Source: Candidatus Dojkabacteria bacterium (GTDB lineage: Bacteria; Patescibacteriota; Dojkabacteria; SC72). Taken from it: a stretch of 64,000 nucleotides of DNA. The notes below the pieces were generated by a model. The model was given only the letters and a program-made list of their open reading frames with translations. It was not told where the DNA came from and ran no database searches. Numbering within the stretch: position 1 is the stretch's first letter; every line of letters starts with the position of its first letter. Both the position numbers and the translations under genes were made by a program. Positions 2,807 through 31,964 of this stretch are shown in pieces. The stretch spans positions 35,601-99,600 of the forward strand of contig DUTP01000002.1 of NCBI GenBank assembly GCA_012842045.1, written 5' to 3'.

Positions 2807-5095
2807 ATGAATATAAATATCATAGGCATAATAACCTTGTTTTTTGCAGTGGTTAACATTGTTTTGGGTGTTTTTGTTCTGTTACGAAATCCGCGAAAAT
2901 CAAATAATATTGTCTATGCATTGAACGTCTTTTCTATTGCGGTATGGATTATCTTAACCTATTTTTATAATAATCCGATTGTATATTCTCCAAAGATATG
3001 GTTGAAGATGGTATACGTGTCTTCTTACGGTATGTTATTTACCCAATTACTTTTTGCTTATTATTTCCCAAGGAAAATTGAAGGAAAACTCATGTATTAC
3101 GTTATACCTATTGTTTTAACGTTAATTCCAAGTATATATGTTCTATTAGTTAAGAACTCTGTTATAGATAGTGTAGTACACTATCCAGACAGTTTTATTT
3201 CTGTAGCTAAAATGGGACCTGATTACTGGATATATACATTGCCGAATGTTTTAGGAATTCTTTTAATAGCACCATACTTCTTATTTAAAAGTAAAGCATT
3301 TACTGGATATGAAAAAGCTCAAGTAAGATTTTATATCATTGGTGCTCTGCTTATGATGGTTCCTTTAGTGATCGTAGACTATTTTATTCCTATAATGACA
3401 GGAGACACAAAGTATTTTGTTCTAGGACCACTATTTGCTATTCCTTTTACAATTGGAGCTGCATATCCTATTCTCCAAAGTAGATTTGTTAGGATTCCTG
3501 TCATTCTTGGTAACGTTGTTGTGTCTATATTAAAGTTAGTCTTTATATACTTTTCTCTGCTTTTCTTTACCGTTTTCTTAAAGTCTGGTTACTATTTAAA
3601 CTCGGACAGATTTCTTGCTATTTTTGTATTTGCACTATTACTCACTGCTTTCTATTTCTACATCTTCAAAAAAATGATGGATCTGCTACTTGATTTTATT
3701 GACAAAGCAAGAAAAAAAAGAGAGGTTGTAGAAAGGAATTTCTTGCAAGTTAGTGGTGTAGAGTTAACAATGGATAGAATTTTAGTTAATCTTCAAAGGA
3801 GTGTAAAAGCTTTATTCAATATCCCTAAATCTGGCATTTTGTTGTTTGACAAAGTTAGTTTTACAGAGAAATATTTTTCATACCCTCAATCAGGCGATTT
3901 CGCAATGAAAGATCTTTTGAATATTGTTCAATTTTGGAGCAAAGCAAGGCTTGGGAATATGATTGTGGCTGATGAGGTTAGAAAAGGGAATATTTTACAA
4001 GGAAGCGAAATACCTGAGAATATAATTCAGGTGTTAGATTTTATGGATAAACATAAGATCGCTGTACTATATCCGTTTAATACGAGGACTAGATTTAATG
4101 GTTTGCTAATTTTGGGTTATAGAGAGGATGGATATCCTTTAGCTTTGGATGAGATAGAGATACTAGAGAGAATGGTTGATAATACAAGTATTTCAATAGG
4201 AAGGGCAATATTATATGATGAAATTCAAGAATTTAGTGGCACTTTAGAACAACAAGTAAATGAACAAACACAAGAACTTCAACAAACAGTATTAGAACTA
4301 GAAGAAGCTAGAAGAAAAGAAAGAGATATGTTAGATATCATGGGTCATGAATTAAGAACACCTGCCACTGTGGTAAAACTAAATGCATCTCTGTTAGAAC
4401 AATATATACATAGTAATCCTAAAAACTTCAAAAAATACTTAGACAGGATAAAGAATAGTATTGAAAATGAAATAAGGTTGATAGACACATTACTCTCTAG
4501 TGCTAAGCTAGAAGGCGAAATGATGGACCTTAACAGAGAGAGAGTTTCTGTACCAGAACAGATAGAAACAGTTATACATGCATATGAATATCAAGCAGAA
4601 GCAAAAGAACTTAAGTTAATATCTAATATAGATGATGACACCAAAGATGTATTTGCAGATAGAGTGAGAGTAGTAGAGATAGTAGACAACCTGGTTAGTA
4701 ATGCTGTCAAATATACAGATGAAGGCTCTATCATTGTAAAAACAGAAAATGATGGTGAATATGTAAAGGTAAGTGTCACTGATACAGGAAAAGGTATCCC
4801 CGAGGAAGAAATACCTAAACTGGGTACTAAATTCCATAGGGTGGAAAAATATATTAATGAGGATAAAGAGAATCCAATAGTAAGTCCAGGAGGAACAGGT
4901 CTAGGTCTTTATGTTGTCTTTGCTTTAATAGAAATGATGGATGGTAAAATATGGGTAGAGAGTCAAGTCGGTAAGGGTACAACCTTCTTTTTCACACTAC
5001 CAGTATACAAAGGTCAAAGAGATGATATAGTGTATACCAAAGAAAAAGATATGTTTAGAAAATTTGGTCTTAAAGGAAGTAGAAAAGAAAAGTAA
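2807..5095 (+). CDS. membrane sensor histidine kinase (polytopic N-terminal domain, GAF-like middle, HisKA + HATPase_c)
   Basis: The N-terminal half has 8 or more hydrophobic segments. The H-box is MGHELRTPATVV. The G-box region is GTGLGLYVVFALIEMMDGKIWVESQVGKGTTFFFTLP. No response regulator gene lies in the window. Confidence 0.85.
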   Translation: MNINIIGIITLFFAVVNIVLGVFVLLRNPRKSNNIVYALNVFSIAVWIILTYFYNNPIVYSPKIWLKMVYVSSYGMLFTQLLFAYYFPRKIEGKLMYYVIPIVLTLIPSIYVLLVKNSVIDSVVHYPDSFISVAKMGPDYWIYTLPNVLGILLIAPYFLFKSKAFTGYEKAQVRFYIIGALLMMVPLVIVDYFIPIMTGDTKYFVLGPLFAIPFTIGAAYPILQSRFVRIPVILGNVVVSILKLVFIYFSLLFFTVFLKSGYYLNSDRFLAIFVFALLLTAFYFYIFKKMMDLLLDFIDKARKKREVVERNFLQVSGVELTMDRILVNLQRSVKALFNIPKSGILLFDKVSFTEKYFSYPQSGDFAMKDLLNIVQFWSKARLGNMIVADEVRKGNILQGSEIPENIIQVLDFMDKHKIAVLYPFNTRTRFNGLLILGYREDGYPLALDEIEILERMVDNTSISIGRAILYDEIQEFSGTLEQQVNEQTQELQQTVLELEEARRKERDMLDIMGHELRTPATVVKLNASLLEQYIHSNPKNFKKYLDRIKNSIENEIRLIDTLLSSAKLEGEMMDLNRERVSVPEQIETVIHAYEYQAEAKELKLISNIDDDTKDVFADRVRVVEIVDNLVSNAVKYTDEGSIIVKTENDGEYVKVSVTDTGKGIPEEEIPKLGTKFHRVEKYINEDKENPIVSPGGTGLGLYVVFALIEMMDGKIWVESQVGKGTTFFFTLPVYKGQRDDIVYTKEKDMFRKFGLKGSRKEK

Positions 5096-25579: not shown

Positions 25580-26431
25580 ATGTCTAGAATTAAAAAAGAC
25601 ACCATCCAAGCAAAAGGTTTTAACATTGAAATATATACCGAAGACTATAAGAATGATTACATTAGCCTAACTGATATAGCTAGGTATAAGAACTCTTACG
25701 AACCTAGTGATGTTATAAAAAACTGGTTAAGAAGAAAAGATACCATTGAGTTTCTAGGACTATGGGAGAGTTTGTACAACAAAAATTTCAATTCGGTCGA
25801 ATTCGACCGAATTAAATCTGAAGCAGGCAGTAATGCATTTACTCTTTCTCCTAAAAGATGGGTAGAAACATCAGGTGCGATAGGGATTGTTACTAAAGGT
25901 GGACGATATGGTAGAACTTTTGCTCATAAAGATATTGCTTTTAAATTTGCTTCTTGGATCTCAGCAGAATTTGAATTGTATATAATAAAGGATTATCAAA
26001 GACTAAAGGAAAGTGAAAATTCTAGATTGTCATTATCCTGGAATTTACACAGAGAAATTTCAAAAATCAACTATCGTATTCATACAGATGCAATTAAAGA
26101 ATACCTAGTAAAAGATTTAAGTGATGAACAATTGTCTTACAAATATGCAGATGAGGCAGATATGTTAAATGTTGCACTGTTTAACAAAAGAGCAAAAGAA
26201 TGGAGAGATGAAAACCCTAATCTAGAAGGTAATATTAGAGACTATGCAAGTTTAAATGAATTGTTAGTACTTGCGAATATGGAGAATTACAACGCTATCT
26301 TAATTGAAAAAGGTATTGAACAAAAAGAAAGAATGATTGAATTAAGAAGGCTGGCTAGAACACAATTTTTGTCTTTAGAGAGAAAAGGGAATAAGAGTAT
26401 AAGGAAGTTGTCAGGTAAAAATAGTAACTGA
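25580..26431 (+). CDS. KilA-N domain protein (phage/mobile-element associated)
   Basis: N-terminal FNIEIYTEDYKNDYISLTDIARYKN ... FASWISAEFELYIIKDY matches the KilA-N DNA-binding domain pattern. Confidence 0.75.
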   Translation: MSRIKKDTIQAKGFNIEIYTEDYKNDYISLTDIARYKNSYEPSDVIKNWLRRKDTIEFLGLWESLYNKNFNSVEFDRIKSEAGSNAFTLSPKRWVETSGAIGIVTKGGRYGRTFAHKDIAFKFASWISAEFELYIIKDYQRLKESENSRLSLSWNLHREISKINYRIHTDAIKEYLVKDLSDEQLSYKYADEADMLNVALFNKRAKEWRDENPNLEGNIRDYASLNELLVLANMENYNAILIEKGIEQKERMIELRRLARTQFLSLERKGNKSIRKLSGKNSN

Positions 26432-26540: not shown

Positions 26541-27557
26541 ATGAAAATCCTAGTAACAGGTGGAGCCGGCTTCATAGGCTCAAACTTCATAAAATACTGG
26601 ATGAAAAAATATCCAGAAGATAAAATAGTAAACCTAGATTTACTAACATACGCAGGTAATCTAGAAAACCTAAAGGAGGTAGAGAATAATCCAAACTATG
26701 AATTCGTAAAAGGAGACATATGTGATAAAGACCTAGTAATGGATCTAACCAAAGGTATGGATCTCATTGTACACTTCGCTGCAGAATCACATGTAGATAG
26801 AAGTATAGAAGGACCAGAAGTATTCATTAAAACAAATGTAATGGGTACACAGAACCTTCTAGAAGCAGCATTCCAAAATGGTGGTATTAGATTCCATCAT
26901 GTATCAACAGATGAAGTATTTGGTGAATTACCAATAGATAAACCAGAATTAAAATTTACAGAAGATATGCCATATGCACCTAGAAGTCCATACTCTGCAT
27001 CTAAAGCAGCATCAGACCATTTAGTCAGAGCATACTTCCATACCTTTAAATTACCAATCACAATCTCTAACACATCAAACAACTATGGACCAAATCAATA
27101 CCCAGAGAAATTAATACCATTGATTGTAACTAGAGCAATGATGGACCAAGAAATACCAGTATATGGAGATGGTAAACAGATTAGAGACTGGGTACATGTA
27201 TTAGATCATGTACGAGGTATTGAGTTGTCAATAAAGGATGGAAAGTTAGGAGAAACATATCTCTTTGGAGGTGATGGTGAAAGAGAGAACATATGGATTG
27301 TAAAAACAGTATTGGAATATCTAAACAAACCAGAATCACTCATAGTTCATGTAGGAGACAGAAAAGGTCATGATGTAAGGTATGCAATTGATAACTCCAA
27401 ATCAGAGAAAGAATTAGGTTACAAACCAGAGAAGAGTGTAGAAGAGTGGTTAAAGGATACAGTACAGTGGTATGTAGATAACAAGGATTGGTGGGAGCCA
27501 CTAAAACCAGTAGCAGACAAACAAGCAGAAAGATATTTAGAGAAAAGATTAGATTAA
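26541..27557 (+). CDS. rmlB: dTDP-glucose 4,6-dehydratase
   Basis: MKILVTGGAGFIGSNF Rossmann, catalytic YSASKAASD, extended SDR family. Confidence 0.9.
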   Translation: MKILVTGGAGFIGSNFIKYWMKKYPEDKIVNLDLLTYAGNLENLKEVENNPNYEFVKGDICDKDLVMDLTKGMDLIVHFAAESHVDRSIEGPEVFIKTNVMGTQNLLEAAFQNGGIRFHHVSTDEVFGELPIDKPELKFTEDMPYAPRSPYSASKAASDHLVRAYFHTFKLPITISNTSNNYGPNQYPEKLIPLIVTRAMMDQEIPVYGDGKQIRDWVHVLDHVRGIELSIKDGKLGETYLFGGDGERENIWIVKTVLEYLNKPESLIVHVGDRKGHDVRYAIDNSKSEKELGYKPEKSVEEWLKDTVQWYVDNKDWWEPLKPVADKQAERYLEKRLD

Positions 27558-27575
27558 TTTAGTATTCACATATAT

Positions 27576-28664
27576 ATGAAAGCACTCATATTAGCAGGAG
27601 GTAGAGGTACAAGACTAAGACCTCTTACACATACTAAAAACAAACATATGTTACCCATTGGTAACAGACCTATGATAGAGAGAATTATCAAGGATGCAGT
27701 AGATTTAGGAATTAAGGATATCATTATTAACATTAACAAGGGTGATAAAGAGATGCCTGAGCTACTTGGAGATGGTAAAAGATTTGGTAGGGGAGTAAAG
27801 CTCCACTACATAGAACAACCAGAACCAAATGGAATGATGTATCCAATTAAACTAGCTGAAAAGTTGATAGGGGATGAAGAATTTCTCTTCTCTGCTGGTG
27901 ATAATATCTTAACAGGTGGTCTTAAGAAACATTATGCTGATTTTAAAAAGAAGAAATCAGATGCTCATGTATTAGTTGTAAGAAGACCAGACTATCAAAA
28001 TTTTGGTGTTGCAGTAATGGAAGATGATAAGATTGTAAATACAGTAGAGAAACCTCAAGAGTTTGTAAGTGATTTAGTCCTCTCAGCTATTTACTTCTTT
28101 ACACCTGCTGTATTTAAAGCTTTTGATTATGCAAAACCAATAGATCCAAAGGGTACTGGGAAAGCAGAATACTATCCTCCAGTAATTAACAACTGGTTGA
28201 TTGAGAATGGATATACCTTCACAGCATCAGAAGTAACAGGATGGTGGAAGGATACAGGAGCTCCAGAGGATCTTATCTTAGCAAACAGATTAATCCTTGA
28301 AAGAGAGTGTTTAGATGAGTGTAAGGGTAAGGTAAAGGATAGTAAGATAGAGGGAAATGTTGAGATAGGGAAGGGTTCTGTTGTTAAAAACTCAATCTTA
28401 AGAGGACCAATATCTATTGCAGACAATGTTACTGTTGAGAATGCATACATTGGACCATTCACATCTATTGGAGAAGGTAGTGTAATTAAAGATGCTGAAA
28501 TAGAGAATAGTATATTGATGGGTAATTGTAATGTACATAACCTTCATGAGAGATTAGACAGTTCTTTGATTGGTTGGAATGCAGAGGTGACAACAAAGGA
28601 ATCACTTCCTAAGGCAGATACTCTACTTATTGGAGATGATTCTAAGGTGATATTAGCTAAGTAG
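27576..28664 (+). CDS. rmlA: glucose-1-phosphate thymidylyltransferase, long (archaeal-type) form with C-terminal left-handed beta-helix
   Basis: MKALILAGGRGTRLRPLT sugar-nucleotidyltransferase motif, followed by hexapeptide repeats in the C-terminal 120 aa. Confidence 0.8.
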   Translation: MKALILAGGRGTRLRPLTHTKNKHMLPIGNRPMIERIIKDAVDLGIKDIIININKGDKEMPELLGDGKRFGRGVKLHYIEQPEPNGMMYPIKLAEKLIGDEEFLFSAGDNILTGGLKKHYADFKKKKSDAHVLVVRRPDYQNFGVAVMEDDKIVNTVEKPQEFVSDLVLSAIYFFTPAVFKAFDYAKPIDPKGTGKAEYYPPVINNWLIENGYTFTASEVTGWWKDTGAPEDLILANRLILERECLDECKGKVKDSKIEGNVEIGKGSVVKNSILRGPISIADNVTVENAYIGPFTSIGEGSVIKDAEIENSILMGNCNVHNLHERLDSSLIGWNAEVTTKESLPKADTLLIGDDSKVILAK

Positions 28665-28744
28665 GATTAAAAATTAATTAAAAATGTACTTCCAGAGGGG
28701 CTTTCTGCTTGTTTGTGTTTGGGTGCTTTGGGTATAATTGAATT

Positions 28745-29269
28745 GTGCCCAAAAAGAAATATCCAACAATATATGCATTTATAGATAGTCAAAACCTCAA
28801 CTTAGGTACTTCAAAAGATATATACCATAGAGGTAAGATTATCTATCATGGTTGGAAGTTAGATATGAAAGGTTTTCATAGATATCTAACGGAAAAGCTA
28901 CGAGTTGACAAAGCTTTTTTGTTTCTAGGATATATTAGAAACAATGAAAAGATGTATCAGAAGTTTAGGGAATATGGATATGACATAATCTTTAAACCTA
29001 CTGTTAGAGGGCAAGGAGGAAAACCAAAAGGTAATATTGATGCAGAGTTAGTTCTTTACTCTTCAGCAATATTTTTTAAAGAATTTGATAAAGGAATTTT
29101 TGTTTCAGGGGATGGAGATTTTCATTGTTTGTATAAATTTATGAAAGAGAAAGGTAAACTACAATCGATCTTAATACCAAATAGATATACACAATCTAAA
29201 TTGCTTGAGGATTTTGAAGTGTATAAAAGACAATTATTTTATGATAAATCTTTGTTGGAGCAAAAATAA
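28745..29269 (+). CDS. NYN/LabA-like (PIN-fold) domain protein
   Basis: The AFIDSQNL ... NIDAELV ... FVSGDGDF acidic pattern matches the NYN/LabA domain. A GTG start is the only in-frame start after the upstream stop. Confidence 0.65.
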   Translation: MPKKKYPTIYAFIDSQNLNLGTSKDIYHRGKIIYHGWKLDMKGFHRYLTEKLRVDKAFLFLGYIRNNEKMYQKFREYGYDIIFKPTVRGQGGKPKGNIDAELVLYSSAIFFKEFDKGIFVSGDGDFHCLYKFMKEKGKLQSILIPNRYTQSKLLEDFEVYKRQLFYDKSLLEQK

Positions 29270-29465
29270 TGGGAGGCGTTACTCAGCACCTCGTAAGTGC
29301 AGGCTCGTATTCTCCCTCATGATTGTTACCATTATATCCTTTTCACTTATTTTCTACAACTTTTCTTTTTACAAATATATTAACTAATGGTTGGATAAAA
29401 TAGTTCATTATCTTGTAGCTAAGAAAGATTGCTAATACACAATTATTCTGTTATATTCTACTAAG

Positions 29466-30047
29466 ATGAGAAGGAATAAAAATAAGCTAAAAAACCTAAT
29501 AGTTTATATCCTTTCCGAATACAATAACTCAAACCTAACAGAGACCAAACTACAAAAACTACTCTACTTCTGTGATTTTGAATGCTACGAGATTAGTGGT
29601 AAATCAATAACAGGGTTTAAGTACAAGAAAAATCACTACGGTCCAACAATAATAGATTTAAGTGATTATCTCAAGGAGTTAAAAGAAGAGGGATATATTG
29701 AGATTATAGAAGGAGAAACAAGTTACGGTTCTCCTAAAAAAACATTTGCTCTTAAGAAAAGTATTGGAGATTTTAGAAAGGTGTTCACAGATTTAGAACT
29801 TAAAACAATTGATGATGTAAACAATGCATATGTAGGTCTTAAGCCTACAGAGATAAGTAAGTTATCTCATTCAGATTTTCCATATCTAGCAACCAATGAT
29901 AGGGAATATATAGACTATAATCTAGTTAAATATCGTGATACTGAGGAAGCAAATCAGGCAAAAGAAGACTATTCTGCTTTCTCATCTGGGGAGTTTTCCA
30001 ACATTGTAGGTAAATTTGCTAAAACTCTTCAGGATAGTGGAAATTAA
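29466..30047 (+). CDS. Panacea-domain (DUF4065, SocA/GepA-like) antitoxin-type protein
   Basis: N-terminal TKLQKLLYFCDFE ... HYGP matches the hallmark Panacea/DUF4065 motif (TKLqKLLYf...hGPv). Confidence 0.7.
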   Translation: MRRNKNKLKNLIVYILSEYNNSNLTETKLQKLLYFCDFECYEISGKSITGFKYKKNHYGPTIIDLSDYLKELKEEGYIEIIEGETSYGSPKKTFALKKSIGDFRKVFTDLELKTIDDVNNAYVGLKPTEISKLSHSDFPYLATNDREYIDYNLVKYRDTEEANQAKEDYSAFSSGEFSNIVGKFAKTLQDSGN

Positions 30048-30420
30048 AGACTATGGAAACAGTTTAATATCTTCTGATTTAAAGAGGCTTAAAAAACTTA
30101 GGTCTTTAGAGAAGGATTTAGAAACTTACTTCATTGCTCACAAGAATACTTTTTTAGAGAACGGTCTTCTTAGTTGTAAGATTGCAGATGGTAAAACACC
30201 AGATGGCTTAATATATTGGGTATGTAAGGAAAGAATAGTGGTTACAAATCCTAAAACAGGTGCAAGTGATGGTTGTAGACTATGGTTTTTAATCATATTT
30301 GAAAGTCCTATAAAAGCTCATTATGTAAAAACTCTCTTGTATTCTGCTAAGGAGGAAAAGAAATTTCCAAAAGATAAATGTTATCAAAATATAAAGAAGG
30401 CACTGGAGAGCATTTTGTAA
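30016..30420 (+). CDS. hypothetical 134-aa protein, candidate toxin partner of the Panacea-domain gene
   Basis: Overlaps the Panacea gene by 32 nt. A TTG start is the first start after the in-frame stop at 30007, and a GGT SD-like sequence lies 6 nt upstream. I recognise no fold. Confidence 0.4.
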   Translation: MLKLFRIVEIKDYGNSLISSDLKRLKKLRSLEKDLETYFIAHKNTFLENGLLSCKIADGKTPDGLIYWVCKERIVVTNPKTGASDGCRLWFLIIFESPIKAHYVKTLLYSAKEEKKFPKDKCYQNIKKALESIL

Positions 30421-30456
30421 CTTAAGATATTAACTGTTTTTACGTATAACTCATTT

Positions 30457-30465
30457 TGATATAAT
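30457..30465 (+). promoter_or_regulatory. extended -10 TGATATAAT upstream of rmlC
   Basis: TGnTATAAT, 29 nt upstream of the rmlC ATG, in the 73-bp gap after the Panacea-associated ORF. Confidence 0.4.
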
Positions 30466-30493
30466 GTAAAATAAATTCAAACTAATCATACAT

Positions 30494-31045
30494 ATGGAAT
30501 TTGAAAAAGTAGAACATCTACCAGACTTGGTAGTAGTAACCCTTAAAGCTTTTCATGATGACAGAGGTTTCTTTGAAGAAACATATGATGAAGACAAGTT
30601 TAGAGAAGCAGGTCTTCCTACTAATTGGGTGAAAGATAATCACTCACAATCTTGTAAGAATGTGCTAAGAGGTATGCATTGGCAGATAGGACCAAATGCA
30701 CAGGATAAATTTGTAAGAGTAATTAGAGGAAAAGCAATTGATGTAGCTGTAGATATTCGAAAAGGATCTCCTACATTTGGACAGTATCATATGGTTGAAT
30801 TAACAGAGGATAATCATACAGGATTCTTCATACCTAAAGGTTTTGCTCATGGATTCTTAGCATTAACAGATAATGTTGATTTTGAATACAAAGTGACTGG
30901 TAAATATGATAAAGAGAGTGAGAGGTCTTTTAGGTGGAATGACCCTGATGTAAACATACCTTGGGGTGTAGAGAAACCGGTTCTTTCTGATAAAGATGCT
31001 AATGCTCCATTACTTAAAGATTTAGGTGATGAAGATATATTTTAA
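30494..31045 (+). CDS. rmlC: dTDP-4-dehydrorhamnose 3,5-epimerase
   Basis: Cupin fold with VLRGMHWQ and the catalytic His/Tyr pattern. 183 aa. Confidence 0.9.
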   Translation: MEFEKVEHLPDLVVVTLKAFHDDRGFFEETYDEDKFREAGLPTNWVKDNHSQSCKNVLRGMHWQIGPNAQDKFVRVIRGKAIDVAVDIRKGSPTFGQYHMVELTEDNHTGFFIPKGFAHGFLALTDNVDFEYKVTGKYDKESERSFRWNDPDVNIPWGVEKPVLSDKDANAPLLKDLGDEDIF

Positions 31046-31061: not shown

Positions 31062-31964
31062 ATGAGTAAGAAGATACTAGTATTTGGTGCAAATGGTATG
31101 TTGGGTTCATATCTGTCAAACTACTTTGGAAAGAAGGGGTATGAAGTTGTCAAGACAGATAGAGATAATGATGATGAGAAAAAAATAGTGGGAGTAGATA
31201 TTACTAATAAGAAAGGATTGCAGGATTTTGTAACTGAGCAAAACCCCGACTGTGTGATTAACTGTGCAGCATATACTAATGTAAACCAAGCAGAATCAGA
31301 ACCAGAAGTGGCAAATACTGTAAATGCAGATGCTCCTAAATATATGGCAGAGGTTTCCAAAGATTTAAATATTCCACTCATACATATCTCTACCAATGAA
31401 GTATTTGGAGATGGAGAATATGATGAAGAAAGTAAAGAGTTTAATCCTCTAAATGAATATGCAAAAAGTAAAAGGAGAGGAGAAGAAAACATTGAGAATG
31501 TAGGTGGTACATACTACATATTTAGGACTTCATGGCTATTTGGACCTAATGCAAAAAACTTTATTAAATTTGTAACTGAAACAGAAGCAACTGAAGAGAA
31601 ACCCCTAACAATTGTTACTGATGAAAAGGGTTGTCCTACATATGTTGGATATTTGACAAGAAGAATGGAGGAGGCTGTTGAGTCTAAGATCGAGCCTGGA
31701 ATATATCATGTATGTAGTTCTGATATGATTTCTAGATATGAATTTGCACTACAGATACTTGAAACTCAGGGTATAGAGAAACCAGTTATTCCAGTAGAGA
31801 AAAAAGATCTTCCACCTAGACCTGTCATTTCACCTTCTAATCAGTTAATTAATACAAAGTTTCCTGAGCATCCAACATCATATGAGATGTTAGTTAAATA
31901 TGTGGAAGAGATGAAACAAGACAGAGATAATGCTGGAAAGAAGGAGACAGTTTATGGAAATTGA
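31062..31964 (+). CDS. rmlD: dTDP-4-dehydrorhamnose reductase
   Basis: MSKKILVFGANGMLGSYL Rossmann motif, and the length and layout of RmlD. Confidence 0.85.
   Translation: MSKKILVFGANGMLGSYLSNYFGKKGYEVVKTDRDNDDEKKIVGVDITNKKGLQDFVTEQNPDCVINCAAYTNVNQAESEPEVANTVNADAPKYMAEVSKDLNIPLIHISTNEVFGDGEYDEESKEFNPLNEYAKSKRRGEENIENVGGTYYIFRTSWLFGPNAKNFIKFVTETEATEEKPLTIVTDEKGCPTYVGYLTRRMEEAVESKIEPGIYHVCSSDMISRYEFALQILETQGIEKPVIPVEKKDLPPRPVISPSNQLINTKFPEHPTSYEMLVKYVEEMKQDRDNAGKKETVYGN

Follow-up and report, generated by a model that had tools for sequence, protein, structure and literature searches.

A putative Panacea toxin-antitoxin cassette and an older NYN nuclease gene between rmlA and rmlC in a Dojkabacteria genome

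Results

Genes of the rml locus

The window, a 64,000-nucleotide stretch of Candidatus Dojkabacteria DNA, carries a dTDP-L-rhamnose gene set, rmlABCD, in which all four enzymes are matched, rmlD by Pfam and the other three by NCBIfam models above curated cut-offs (Table 1). Against TIGR01214, rmlD scores 204.5 bits, slightly under the cut-off of 224.05. The host, a CPR bacterium, has a genome roughly 0.75 Mb in size. A preliminary description reported that the rml genes are split by a three-gene stretch, and the split is real: the ORFs of the region 28665-30493 and of the rml flanks all lie where that description put them, and an NYN gene, a Panacea (DUF4065) gene and a small ORF overlapping the latter occur between rmlB-rmlA and rmlC-rmlD. 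The Panacea gene and the small ORF are designated panA and panT below, and the pair PanAT. Among closely related strains this glycan locus is variable, with NYN, PanAT, rmlC, DUF218 and RhuM each gained or lost.

Table 1. Features of the rml locus, in window coordinates
Feature	Position	Strand	Basis or remark
rmlB	26541-27557	+	NCBIfam TIGR01181, 464.8 bits, exceeds curated cut-off
rmlA, long form (rmlA_long)	27576-28664	+	NCBIfam TIGR01208, 348.4 bits, exceeds curated cut-off
NYN cassette (promoter region, NYN gene, 3' element)	28665-29364	+	recurs whole in L021
Promoter-like site ahead of NYN, TTGTTT (28709-28714)-18 nt-TATAAT (28733-28738)	28709-28738	+	direct reading
NYN/LabA-like single-domain nuclease gene, 174 aa, GTG start	28745-29269	+	PF01936
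NYN-3' element, 59 nt: GGGAGGCGU, covarying hairpin, then UCGUAUUCUCCCU.AUGAU	29268-29326	+	sequence conservation and covariation
PanAT cassette, ~1.05 kb	29399-30420	+	blastn boundaries
Promoter-like site of PanAT cassette, TTGCTA-17 nt-TATATT, TG before -10 box	29429-29457	+	consensus scan
panA, Panacea-domain antitoxin, 193 aa	29466-30047	+	SocA_Panacea PF13274
panT, RelE/ParE-fold putative toxin, 127 aa, GTG start	30037-30420	+	overlaps panA by 11 nt (30037-30047)
Extended -10 box TGATATAAT upstream of rmlC	30457-30465	+	direct reading; kept in relatives
rmlC	30494-31045	+	NCBIfam TIGR01221, 213.1 bits, exceeds curated cut-off
rmlD	31062-31964	+	Pfam RmlD_sub_bind, 221.8 bits, E 1.3e-65

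The NYN gene and its position

The NYN assignment made earlier is borne out by a match to PF01936 (E 3.2e-8, 34.6 bits, cut-off 24.2), and 17 diverse homologues all keep the four acidic residues D14, D99, D123 and D125. The gene has at least 7,994 homologues, and identity across CPR lineages is about 57-60%. The function of LabA-type NYN proteins is listed as unknown (PMC5499597; PF01936, COG1432 group). The same subfamily is found wedged into restriction-modification operons (hsdM/hsdS, helicase/methylase), and distant homologues lie in phage regions, such as portal/terminase. The cassette copy in L021 is 81% identical to the window by blastn and lies in an unrelated context, flanked by a Pur_ac_phosph gene and EF-G.

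The preliminary description viewed all three intervening genes as wedged into a normally contiguous operon. In related Dojkabacteria, however, the NYN gene (73-84% identity) sits between rmlA and rmlC; rmlA-NYN-rmlC is the conserved order, and only the Panacea pair is sporadic. These comparisons indicate that the rmlA-NYN-rmlC arrangement predates the arrival of PanAT in related Dojkabacteria, the NYN cassette having probably stood there since the ancestor of these organisms. A foreign module inside the glycan locus is supported, for the PanAT cassette.

A covarying element 3' of NYN

The NYN-3' element follows the NYN stop codon immediately, directly or one base after it. Its flanks are near-invariant, and relatives about 80% identical in coding sequence carry it almost unchanged. 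Across distant CPR lineages the central hairpin shows covariation, with 89.6% of cells paired and six pairs changed on both sides; none of 500 shuffles paired equally well, and the covariance-model match is 82 bits. In thermodynamic folding the element does not stand out (z from -0.3 to -1.3), and the evidence that it is probably structured is comparative only. Rfam returned nothing at E<=10 for window positions 29200-29470 and nothing at E<=1 for five loci with divergent copies of the element, and scans of viral contigs found no copy.

Four other identities were considered for the element and rejected. Its loop, CUCGUAA, resembles the anticodon loop of a degenerate tRNA, but neither ARAGORN nor Rfam made a call, and both loop and stem vary in other lineages. 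A minus-strand mini-ORF (MRENTSLHLRGAE followed by a stop codon) was rejected because variants lose the stop codon. A minus-strand sRNA or terminator is suggested by a terminator-like match, but 19 cells that are G-U on the plus strand would turn into A-C mismatches on the other strand, compared with four in the reverse direction. The element does not behave as an integron attC site: it tracks one gene family, NYN, or stands alone after NYN loss, rather than lying at the ends of diverse cassettes, and the right end of PanAT lacks it. On the 748-kb Dojkabacteria contig JBMNHB010000001.1, for instance, rmlA is followed by the element, with NYN missing, and then by PanAT.

Promoter-like sites

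The promoter sequences reported earlier for NYN and rmlC are present on direct reading, but a consensus scan passes neither of them because the -35 hexamers are weak or absent; that of NYN matches the consensus at three of six positions. Six nt separate the NYN -10 box from the GTG, so the NYN mRNA may be leaderless or very short-leadered. The extended -10 box of rmlC is kept in L019, L022, L013 and L030, whether PanAT is present or not, and on this conservation the box is judged older than the PanAT insertion. Since rmlCD keeps a conserved -10 box of its own, the operon would have been split transcriptionally already before PanAT came. L013 and L009 retain both the -35 hexamer and the extended -10 box of the promoter-like site that belongs to the PanAT cassette.

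PanA and PanT

The earlier Panacea assignment agrees with the match of panA to PF13274, which covers residues 29-137 (E 2.8e-17, 64.1 bits, cut-off 25.7). Past the domain, an alignment of seven orthologues shows a conserved C-terminal tail of about 45 residues. No DNA-binding domain is recognizable in PanA. Both panA and panT have a dN/dS of 0.10, indicative of purifying selection.

The overlapping ORF had been described as a 134-aa frame starting at a TTG (30016-30420). That version is the mechanical maximum ORF; every homologue, as well as the GenBank gene call, starts at MEIKDYGN, and GTG 30037 is most likely the true start. The ORF itself, conserved as it is, stands as a genuine gene on the sequence evidence. 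Its family is rare and found only in metagenomes: it has 8 close homologues, and 1.84 billion proteins yielded 43 clusters at 50% identity, none of them named. Neither the PanT sequence nor a profile built on it gave a significant match in Pfam, NCBIfam, PADLOC, PHROGs or PDB sequences, and none of 41 family members has a Pfam or NCBIfam match.

The preliminary description saw no recognizable fold in this ORF and proposed a candidate new PanT toxin. Structure prediction gives a different picture, a RelE/ParE fold modeled with high confidence, in which an N-terminal strand and a helical hairpin pack on an antiparallel beta-sheet, and for which HigB2, HigB and RelE are nearest. Foldseek with the first model gave no significant match, its top entries being NTF2-like proteins with poor rmsd. 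The PanT profile finds HigB-2 among PDB sequences at E 0.3-0.5, and hhalign of the PanT family to HigB2/PF06296, in a 14-sequence alignment, gives a probability of 75.6% (P 2.4e-5) over 52 columns. Nor is such a partner new in kind: the commonest recognized PanT domain is MqsR-like, ParE is listed too (Kurata et al. 2022, PMC8832971), and MqsR has been placed in the RelE family (PMC5416850).

The active site of HigB2 comprises Arg51, Arg64, Tyr82 and Lys84, of which Arg64 and Tyr82 were probed by mutagenesis (PMC5416850). Only two of the four have aligned equivalents in PanT. R81, present in 41 of 41 members, pairs with Arg64, and Y102 (Tyr in 28 of 41, Phe in 13) pairs with Tyr82. Lys84 faces Ala104, next to K105, which is found in 15 of 41 members; no basic residue aligns with Arg51, while two basic residues, K64 and R66, are found on the same strand. 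Members of the RelE/ParE superfamily either cleave RNA or inhibit gyrase on one fold (PMC10440598), and PanT could be a ParE-like gyrase poison, or have some other activity than that of an mRNase, and still be neutralized by PanA. The missing Lys84 equivalent and the Phe at position 102 in part of the family favor that reading, as do the strongest invariants, D14, S23 and D27, which belong to the N-terminal helices, outside the RelE catalytic site, and which that site leaves unexplained. We consider it unlikely, given that the top structural and profile matches are mRNases (HigB2, HigB, RelE) and that K64, R66 and R81, invariant or nearly so, sit on the sheet where toxins of the RelE type bind mRNA phosphates.

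Conservation and boundaries of the PanAT pair

A Panacea gene lies upstream of panT in all nine gene contexts examined, across PanT identities of 31-95%, and the pair is all that these contexts share. The two genes overlap by 11-14 nt in most relatives (in L038 a gap of a few nt separates them), and they diverge together, with PanA identities of 46-50% going along with PanT identities of 45-51%. In unrelated contexts PanAT has serine recombinase, DNA-methyltransferase and TIR genes among its neighbors. The published description of PanAT systems calls for a Panacea antitoxin, two genes no more than 100 nt apart, and a conserved pair (PMC8832971); here there is a DUF4065/Panacea domain, an 11-nt overlap, and a pair that is kept while its flanks change. 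The small ORF, being genuine, conserved and co-inherited with the Panacea gene, is therefore a credible PanT, as the preliminary description had suspected in pairing the two.

By blastn the left edge of the cassette falls within 29344-29399 and the right edge within 30397-30449. Relatives without PanAT align up to about 29340 and resume at about 30450, and in relatives that carry PanAT elsewhere the alignment is limited to 29399-30397. Boundaries and distribution together indicate that PanAT is a sporadic mobile cassette. A search for a target-site duplication found a 9-nt direct repeat, ATATTAACT, flanking the cassette (29377-29385 and 30427-30435); it is not above chance because the same 1.3 kb has, besides it, six direct and 14 inverted repeats that are 9-16 nt long.

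Predicted PanAT pairs did not all act as toxin-antitoxin pairs in E. coli: some putative toxins were toxic without rescue by the cognate PanA, and others proved unclonable (PMC8832971). With the PanT catalytic set incomplete relative to HigB2, the Panacea protein and its partner might be a non-toxic pair such as a sensor and a regulator. We regard that as quite improbable; overlapping genes, antitoxin-first order and patchy, unrelated contexts are typical of mobile toxin-antitoxin cassettes, and the predicted fold of PanT is that of a toxin superfamily.

Independence of NYN and PanAT

NYN occurs without PanAT in L018-24, L027, L029, L021 and L043-47, in L018-24 and L027 at the rmlA-rmlC position, and PanAT occurs without NYN in L001-14, L026, L028 and L032-42, in at least seven contexts that include strains 94-97% identical in PanAT. 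In blastn comparisons with relatives the homology blocks of NYN and of PanAT stop at different points, and none of four other gene contexts examined for this NYN subfamily has a Panacea neighbor. Two points favor the suggestion that PanA is paired with the NYN RNase as its toxin, or that all three genes make up one system: they adjoin in the window, and 1.4 kb downstream of a distant PanAT pair (L050) a divergent NYN gene lies on the other strand. The separate distributions and edges make this suggestion very improbable, and NYN is judged not to be the partner.

Discussion

We favor, at a probability of about 0.7 for the explanation as a whole, the view that the rmlA-rmlC interval holds two independent accessory cassettes, an older NYN cassette and PanAT, the latter a PanA-PanT type II toxin-antitoxin pair. 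The domain identities, the predicted fold, the conserved pairing, the purifying selection, the cassette boundaries and the independent distributions are what the analysis shows. The mode of action that we infer from them would be as follows. PanAT would be transcribed from its own promoter, with panT probably coupled translationally to panA. Free PanT would arrest growth, most likely by ribosome-dependent endonucleolytic cleavage of mRNA, and PanA would neutralize it by direct binding, through the Panacea core or the conserved C-terminal tail. The pair might then act as a selfish, stabilizing or abortive-infection module; a link of the rml locus to phage receptors or abortive infection is speculation.

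A bolder reading concerns NYN. Together with its covarying 3' element, the gene may make up an undescribed, self-contained nuclease-plus-RNA module that spreads in CPR bacteria by insertion into operons (rml, type I R-M, helicase/methylase, portal/terminase), with distant versions in phages, and PanAT would then be a second passenger in a recombination-prone glycan locus. Possible roles of the element are then those of an RNA substrate or regulator of the nuclease, a type III-like RNA antitoxin, or a mobility signal. We put this reading forward tentatively, as unlikely.

Under the two-cassette explanation, PanAT is the ordinary kind of system, and NYN together with its hairpin was less to be expected. 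The value of the PanAT finding is modest: it adds a sequence-orphan putative toxin family of RelE/ParE fold to the known Panacea partners. It also shows a mobile putative toxin-antitoxin cassette kept in the surface-sugar locus of a bacterium whose genome is about 0.75 Mb, and since that locus differs among close strains, it offers a natural series of genomes with and without each cassette for study of cassette roles in CPR bacteria. As a lead NYN is of greater interest, being a very large and highly conserved CPR subfamily tied to a covarying 3' element and showing operon-invading behavior; the element is a concrete candidate substrate or partner for an orphan family of LabA-type nucleases.

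Comparison with known systems

The pair resembles the described PanAT systems (Kurata et al. 2022, PMC8832971; NetFlax, PMC10440598) in its Panacea antitoxin, antitoxin-first order, overlapping genes and changing flanks, and its predicted toxin fold is one that is common in the NetFlax network; MqsR-like and ParE PanTs are already on record. It differs in that this PanT sequence family has no Pfam, CDD-type or NCBIfam match, and in its CPR host with a genome of such small size. This PanA, moreover, is a standalone Panacea domain with a C-terminal tail, without the ZBD-HTH, PAD1 or Phd-C modules through which the characterized MqsR, toxSAS and Doc pairs are neutralized.

With HigB2 of Vibrio cholerae HigBA2 (PDB 5mje/5jaa; PMC5416850), the profile alignment spans beta2-beta4; the PanT strand G-x-R-(L/I)-(I/W)-(Y/F) holds the Arg64 equivalent and the strand L-L-x-(I/L)-Y the Tyr82 equivalent. 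In contrast, the Lys84 and Arg51 equivalents are unaligned, sequence identity is about 12%, and two features set PanT apart, an additional pair of C-terminal helices and a conserved N-terminal motif, D-L-K-R-L-K-K...S-L-x-x-D-L. The antitoxin here is a Panacea protein rather than HigA2 with its HTH, and the gene order is reversed.

The NYN gene invites comparison with the selfish free-standing nuclease genes, or "morons", of phage and restriction-modification operons, such as homing-endonuclease genes and prrC in a type I R-M operon. We know of no homing, cleavage or anticodon-nuclease activity in LabA-type NYN proteins, nor, to our knowledge, has the covarying NYN-3' element a counterpart in those systems. 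Like them, however, NYN is a single nuclease gene wedged into coherent operons, and it comes with its own promoter region and 3' hairpin both in the window and in the Dojkabacteria relatives.

Two cassettes between rmlA and rmlC

The rmlB, long-form rmlA and rmlC genes of the window (32.9% G+C) all score above their NCBIfam equivalog cut-offs; rmlD scores just under its own (204.5 versus 224), with a strong match to the Pfam RmlD model. Three genes do lie between rmlA and rmlC, at exactly the ORF positions of the preliminary description: a LabA-like NYN nuclease gene (PF01936, E 3.2e-8), a Panacea gene (panA, putative antitoxin; PF13274, E 2.8e-17), and a small overlapping ORF (panT, putative toxin). 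From sequence comparison and modeling, the segment appears to hold a conventional PanAT-type toxin-antitoxin cassette with a predicted RelE/ParE-fold toxin, and the rml operon would already have been split by the NYN cassette before PanAT dropped in.

The related loci (L numbers) come from contigs labeled Candidatus Dojkabacteria and, in some cases, Saccharibacteria. Those with NYN at 84% identity (L018-20, L027) or 73% (L022-24) read rmlA, NYN, rmlC, rmlD, (DUF218), glycosyltransferase, and M23 on the minus strand, with rmlB upstream of rmlA also seen in L018-20. PanAT is absent from all of these although NYN is present, and their alignment to the window runs to about 29340 and resumes from about 30450. 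Loci L005-11 carry a HIT-like gene, PanAT and then the orthologous 397-aa glycosyltransferase, rml genes being absent, and align only over 29399-30397, resuming from 32686. In strains 94-97% identical in PanAT, the order is rmlA-PanAT-rmlC and NYN is missing. Of these, L026, L028, L033 and L034 keep its last ~20 nt plus the 3' element, and L013, L014 and L032 keep no remnant of gene or element; the NYN block (window 28665-29364) is found at an unrelated place in L021 and L025. Because relatives have either cassette alone, with separate alignment breaks, NYN between rmlA and rmlC is probably the older state in this clade, and PanAT, about 1.05 kb long and with a promoter-like site of its own found by scan, is a cassette of sporadic occurrence. 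The proposed joint insertion of three genes is not supported: NYN looks to be an older resident and only PanAT sporadic. Nor does NYN qualify as the toxic partner of PanA, as had been suggested, since it occurs without PanAT in L018-24 and L027, and PanAT without it elsewhere. The extended -10 box of rmlC, TGATATAAT, is kept in relatives with and without PanAT.

No integrase is present with the PanAT cassette, and it has no significant terminal repeats. A 9-nt direct repeat, ATATTAACT, flanks it, and empty sites have one related copy (CATTAAC); we rejected it as an insertion mark because in this AT-rich stretch chance alone yields many repeats of that length. One may reasonably guess that the cassette moves by homologous recombination within a hypervariable glycan locus.

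Several neighboring features were seen. In L032, a strain 96% identical in PanT, PanAT is followed directly by rmlD, and rmlC and the NYN element are absent at the locus; making rhamnose would then require an rmlC elsewhere. In the close relative L026, a 241-aa orphan gene and a RhuM-family gene on the minus strand take the place of DUF218; with the solo NYN element there, this adds to the case for a hot spot of accessory genes at this locus. Just upstream of rmlB in the window, a KilA-N-domain protein matches PADLOC candidate defence model PDC-S22 over nearly its whole length (E 4.5e-127), and L021 has a copy, 83% identical, close to its relocated NYN gene.

Coordinates of features in the window and in related loci
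Feature	Sequence	Position	Remark
KilA-N-domain gene	window	25580-26431 (+)	
rmlA end	window	28664	three ORFs before rmlC
NYN -10 box to GTG start codon	window	28733-28747	TATAAT
NYN-3' element	window	29268-29326 (+)	59 nt; begins one base after NYN stop codon
Direct repeat	window	29377-29385; 30427-30435	
PanAT promoter-like site	window	29429-29457	
PanT N-terminal motif	window	30037-30120	PanT residues 11-27
rmlC start	window	30494	
NYN-3' element	L019	6539-6597	
NYN-3' element	L021	6545-6603	
NYN-3' element	L022	6524-6582	
NYN-3' element	L029	2372-2430; 2507-2566	
NYN-3' element	L043	3534-3592	
NYN-3' element	L045	3544-3602	
NYN-3' element	L046	3530-3587	
Second element variant	L043	2668-2710	
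Second element variant	L048	2967-3008	
Second element variant	L049	about 2966-3020	
DUF218 replacement	L026	4117-6152	
PanAT then rmlD	L032	3522-4880	
PanAT and NYN	L050	2453-5395	

The NYN gene and its 3' element

The best 120 of at least 7,994 NYN homologues are 56-90% identical and include members from Levybacteria, Parcubacteria and CPR3; the acidic residues are invariant. LabA-type NYN proteins are listed with function unknown (PMC5499597). The gene seems to behave like an operon-invading cassette, judging from its placement in the loci examined (L043/L044, L046/L047, L045, L048, L049). Elsewhere, members of the same subfamily are lodged within other operons, in the orders hsdM, NYN, NYN, hsdS, Abi_alpha, hsdR; PLD/SNF2 helicase, NYN, MmeI-type methylase; and HTH, NYN, SHOCT, NmeDI-like restriction gene. 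More distant homologues (44-45% identity) are placed between lambda-type portal and gpA terminase genes of a viral contig, or close to a CI-like repressor. In the window, 6 nt separate the end of the NYN -10 box from the GTG start codon, and the NYN mRNA may therefore be leaderless.

A candidate structured RNA follows the gene. The flanks, GGGAGGCGU and UCGUAUUCUCCCU.AUGAU, hardly vary even between CPR lineages that share only ~58% identity in NYN protein, and its central hairpin shows compensatory substitutions (GCAC/GUGC, AUAGAC/GUCUAU, CUAUC/GAUAG, AUUAUC/GAUAAU). Across eight distinct sequences 89.6% of cells pair, with six pairs changed on both sides; not one of 500 shuffles was as good, slid controls reached at most 52%, and the NYN-sense strand is the one favored by G-U pairs. 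By covariance model, the element follows every NYN gene of this subfamily among the loci examined; it also has a second tandem copy in L029 and persists at rmlA/rmlC despite NYN deletion in L026 and L030. A diverged solo element (38 bits) also stands in L026 next to the RhuM gene, just before the glycosyltransferase. More distant NYN genes are followed by a second variant, whose closing stem differs but covaries (GACAGGC/GCCUGUC versus GGCUGGC/GCCAGCC), with GGG/CCC or GGC/GCC as inner hairpin and with the same tail, AUCGUGAU (ATCGTGAT). Rfam 15 has no match to the element, and the main text of the searched catalogues of candidate structured RNAs does not mention NYN. As to its possible function, we put a 3' UTR element recognized or processed by NYN first, a plain terminator or processing signal second, and an RNA partner or a signal for mobility last. 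What deserves follow-up is the NYN gene together with its structured 3' element.

The small ORF as partner of the Panacea gene

Searches of Pfam, NCBIfam, PADLOC and PDB sequences find nothing that matches the small ORF, and its PHROG matches are only marginal (E 0.01-0.03). Eight close homologues are 49-94% identical; an exhaustive profile search of 1.84 billion proteins yields only 43 clusters at 50% identity, and none of ten members checked carries a name. All homologues start MEIKDYGN, equivalent in the window to GTG 30037, the GenBank gene call; the TTG at 30016 chosen previously only gives the ORF its maximum length. Every locus recovered has a Panacea gene immediately upstream, overlapping panT by 11-14 nt in most (in L038 panA stops a few nt before panT), and the flanking genes differ completely: HTH before the pair, serine recombinase and TIR gene after; serine recombinase before, DNA-methyltransferase gene after; adjoining ribosomal-protein genes; HIT-like gene before, glycosyltransferase after; several rml arrangements; and L050, whose PanT is 31% identical. 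The two proteins diverge in step, with 46-50% identity in PanA where PanT has 45-51%, and dN/dS of ~0.10 for each indicates purifying selection. These results agree with the in-silico criteria by which Kurata et al. (PMC8832971) called PanAT loci, and the small ORF is a real gene and the constant partner of the Panacea gene. In L050 a divergent NYN gene that lacks a type-1 element lies on the opposite strand, 1.4 kb downstream; this second NYN-PanAT co-occurrence may be chance.

Predicted fold of PanT

With a 9-sequence alignment, AlphaFold2 gave a PanT model of pLDDT 80.9, for which Foldseek found nothing significant. With 41 family members, pLDDT rose to 94.8 (pTM 0.87), with predicted topology beta-alpha-alpha-beta-beta-beta-beta-alpha-alpha. 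Independently of structure, the family profile weakly matches HigB-2 chains (E 0.3-0.5), and hhalign links the family to a 14-sequence alignment of the HigB2 family (PF06296) over 52 columns (probability 75.6%, P 2.4e-5). The model and these profile links make a RelE/ParE fold a well-supported prediction for an ORF earlier said to have no recognizable fold. The residues compared here, Arg51, Arg64, Tyr82 and Lys84 of Vibrio cholerae HigB2, come from mutagenesis (PMC5416850). In the hhalign alignment, family-invariant R81 aligns with Arg64, Y102 (Y or F in the family) with Tyr82, and Ala104 with Lys84; no basic residue aligns with Arg51, though K64 and R66 lie on the same strand. The strongest invariants, D14 (41/41), S23 and D27, in the N-terminal motif D-L-K-R-L-K-K...S-L-x-x-D-L, are outside the RelE-type active site. 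An mRNA endonuclease is the most likely reading of PanT activity, at roughly even odds.

Among PanTs, Kurata et al. (PMC8832971) found MqsR-like the commonest recognized domain and listed ParE too; the RelE family includes MqsR (PMC5416850), and the RelE/ParE fold recurs in NetFlax. Since such toxins are already listed, PanT is a new sequence family, not a new PanT class.
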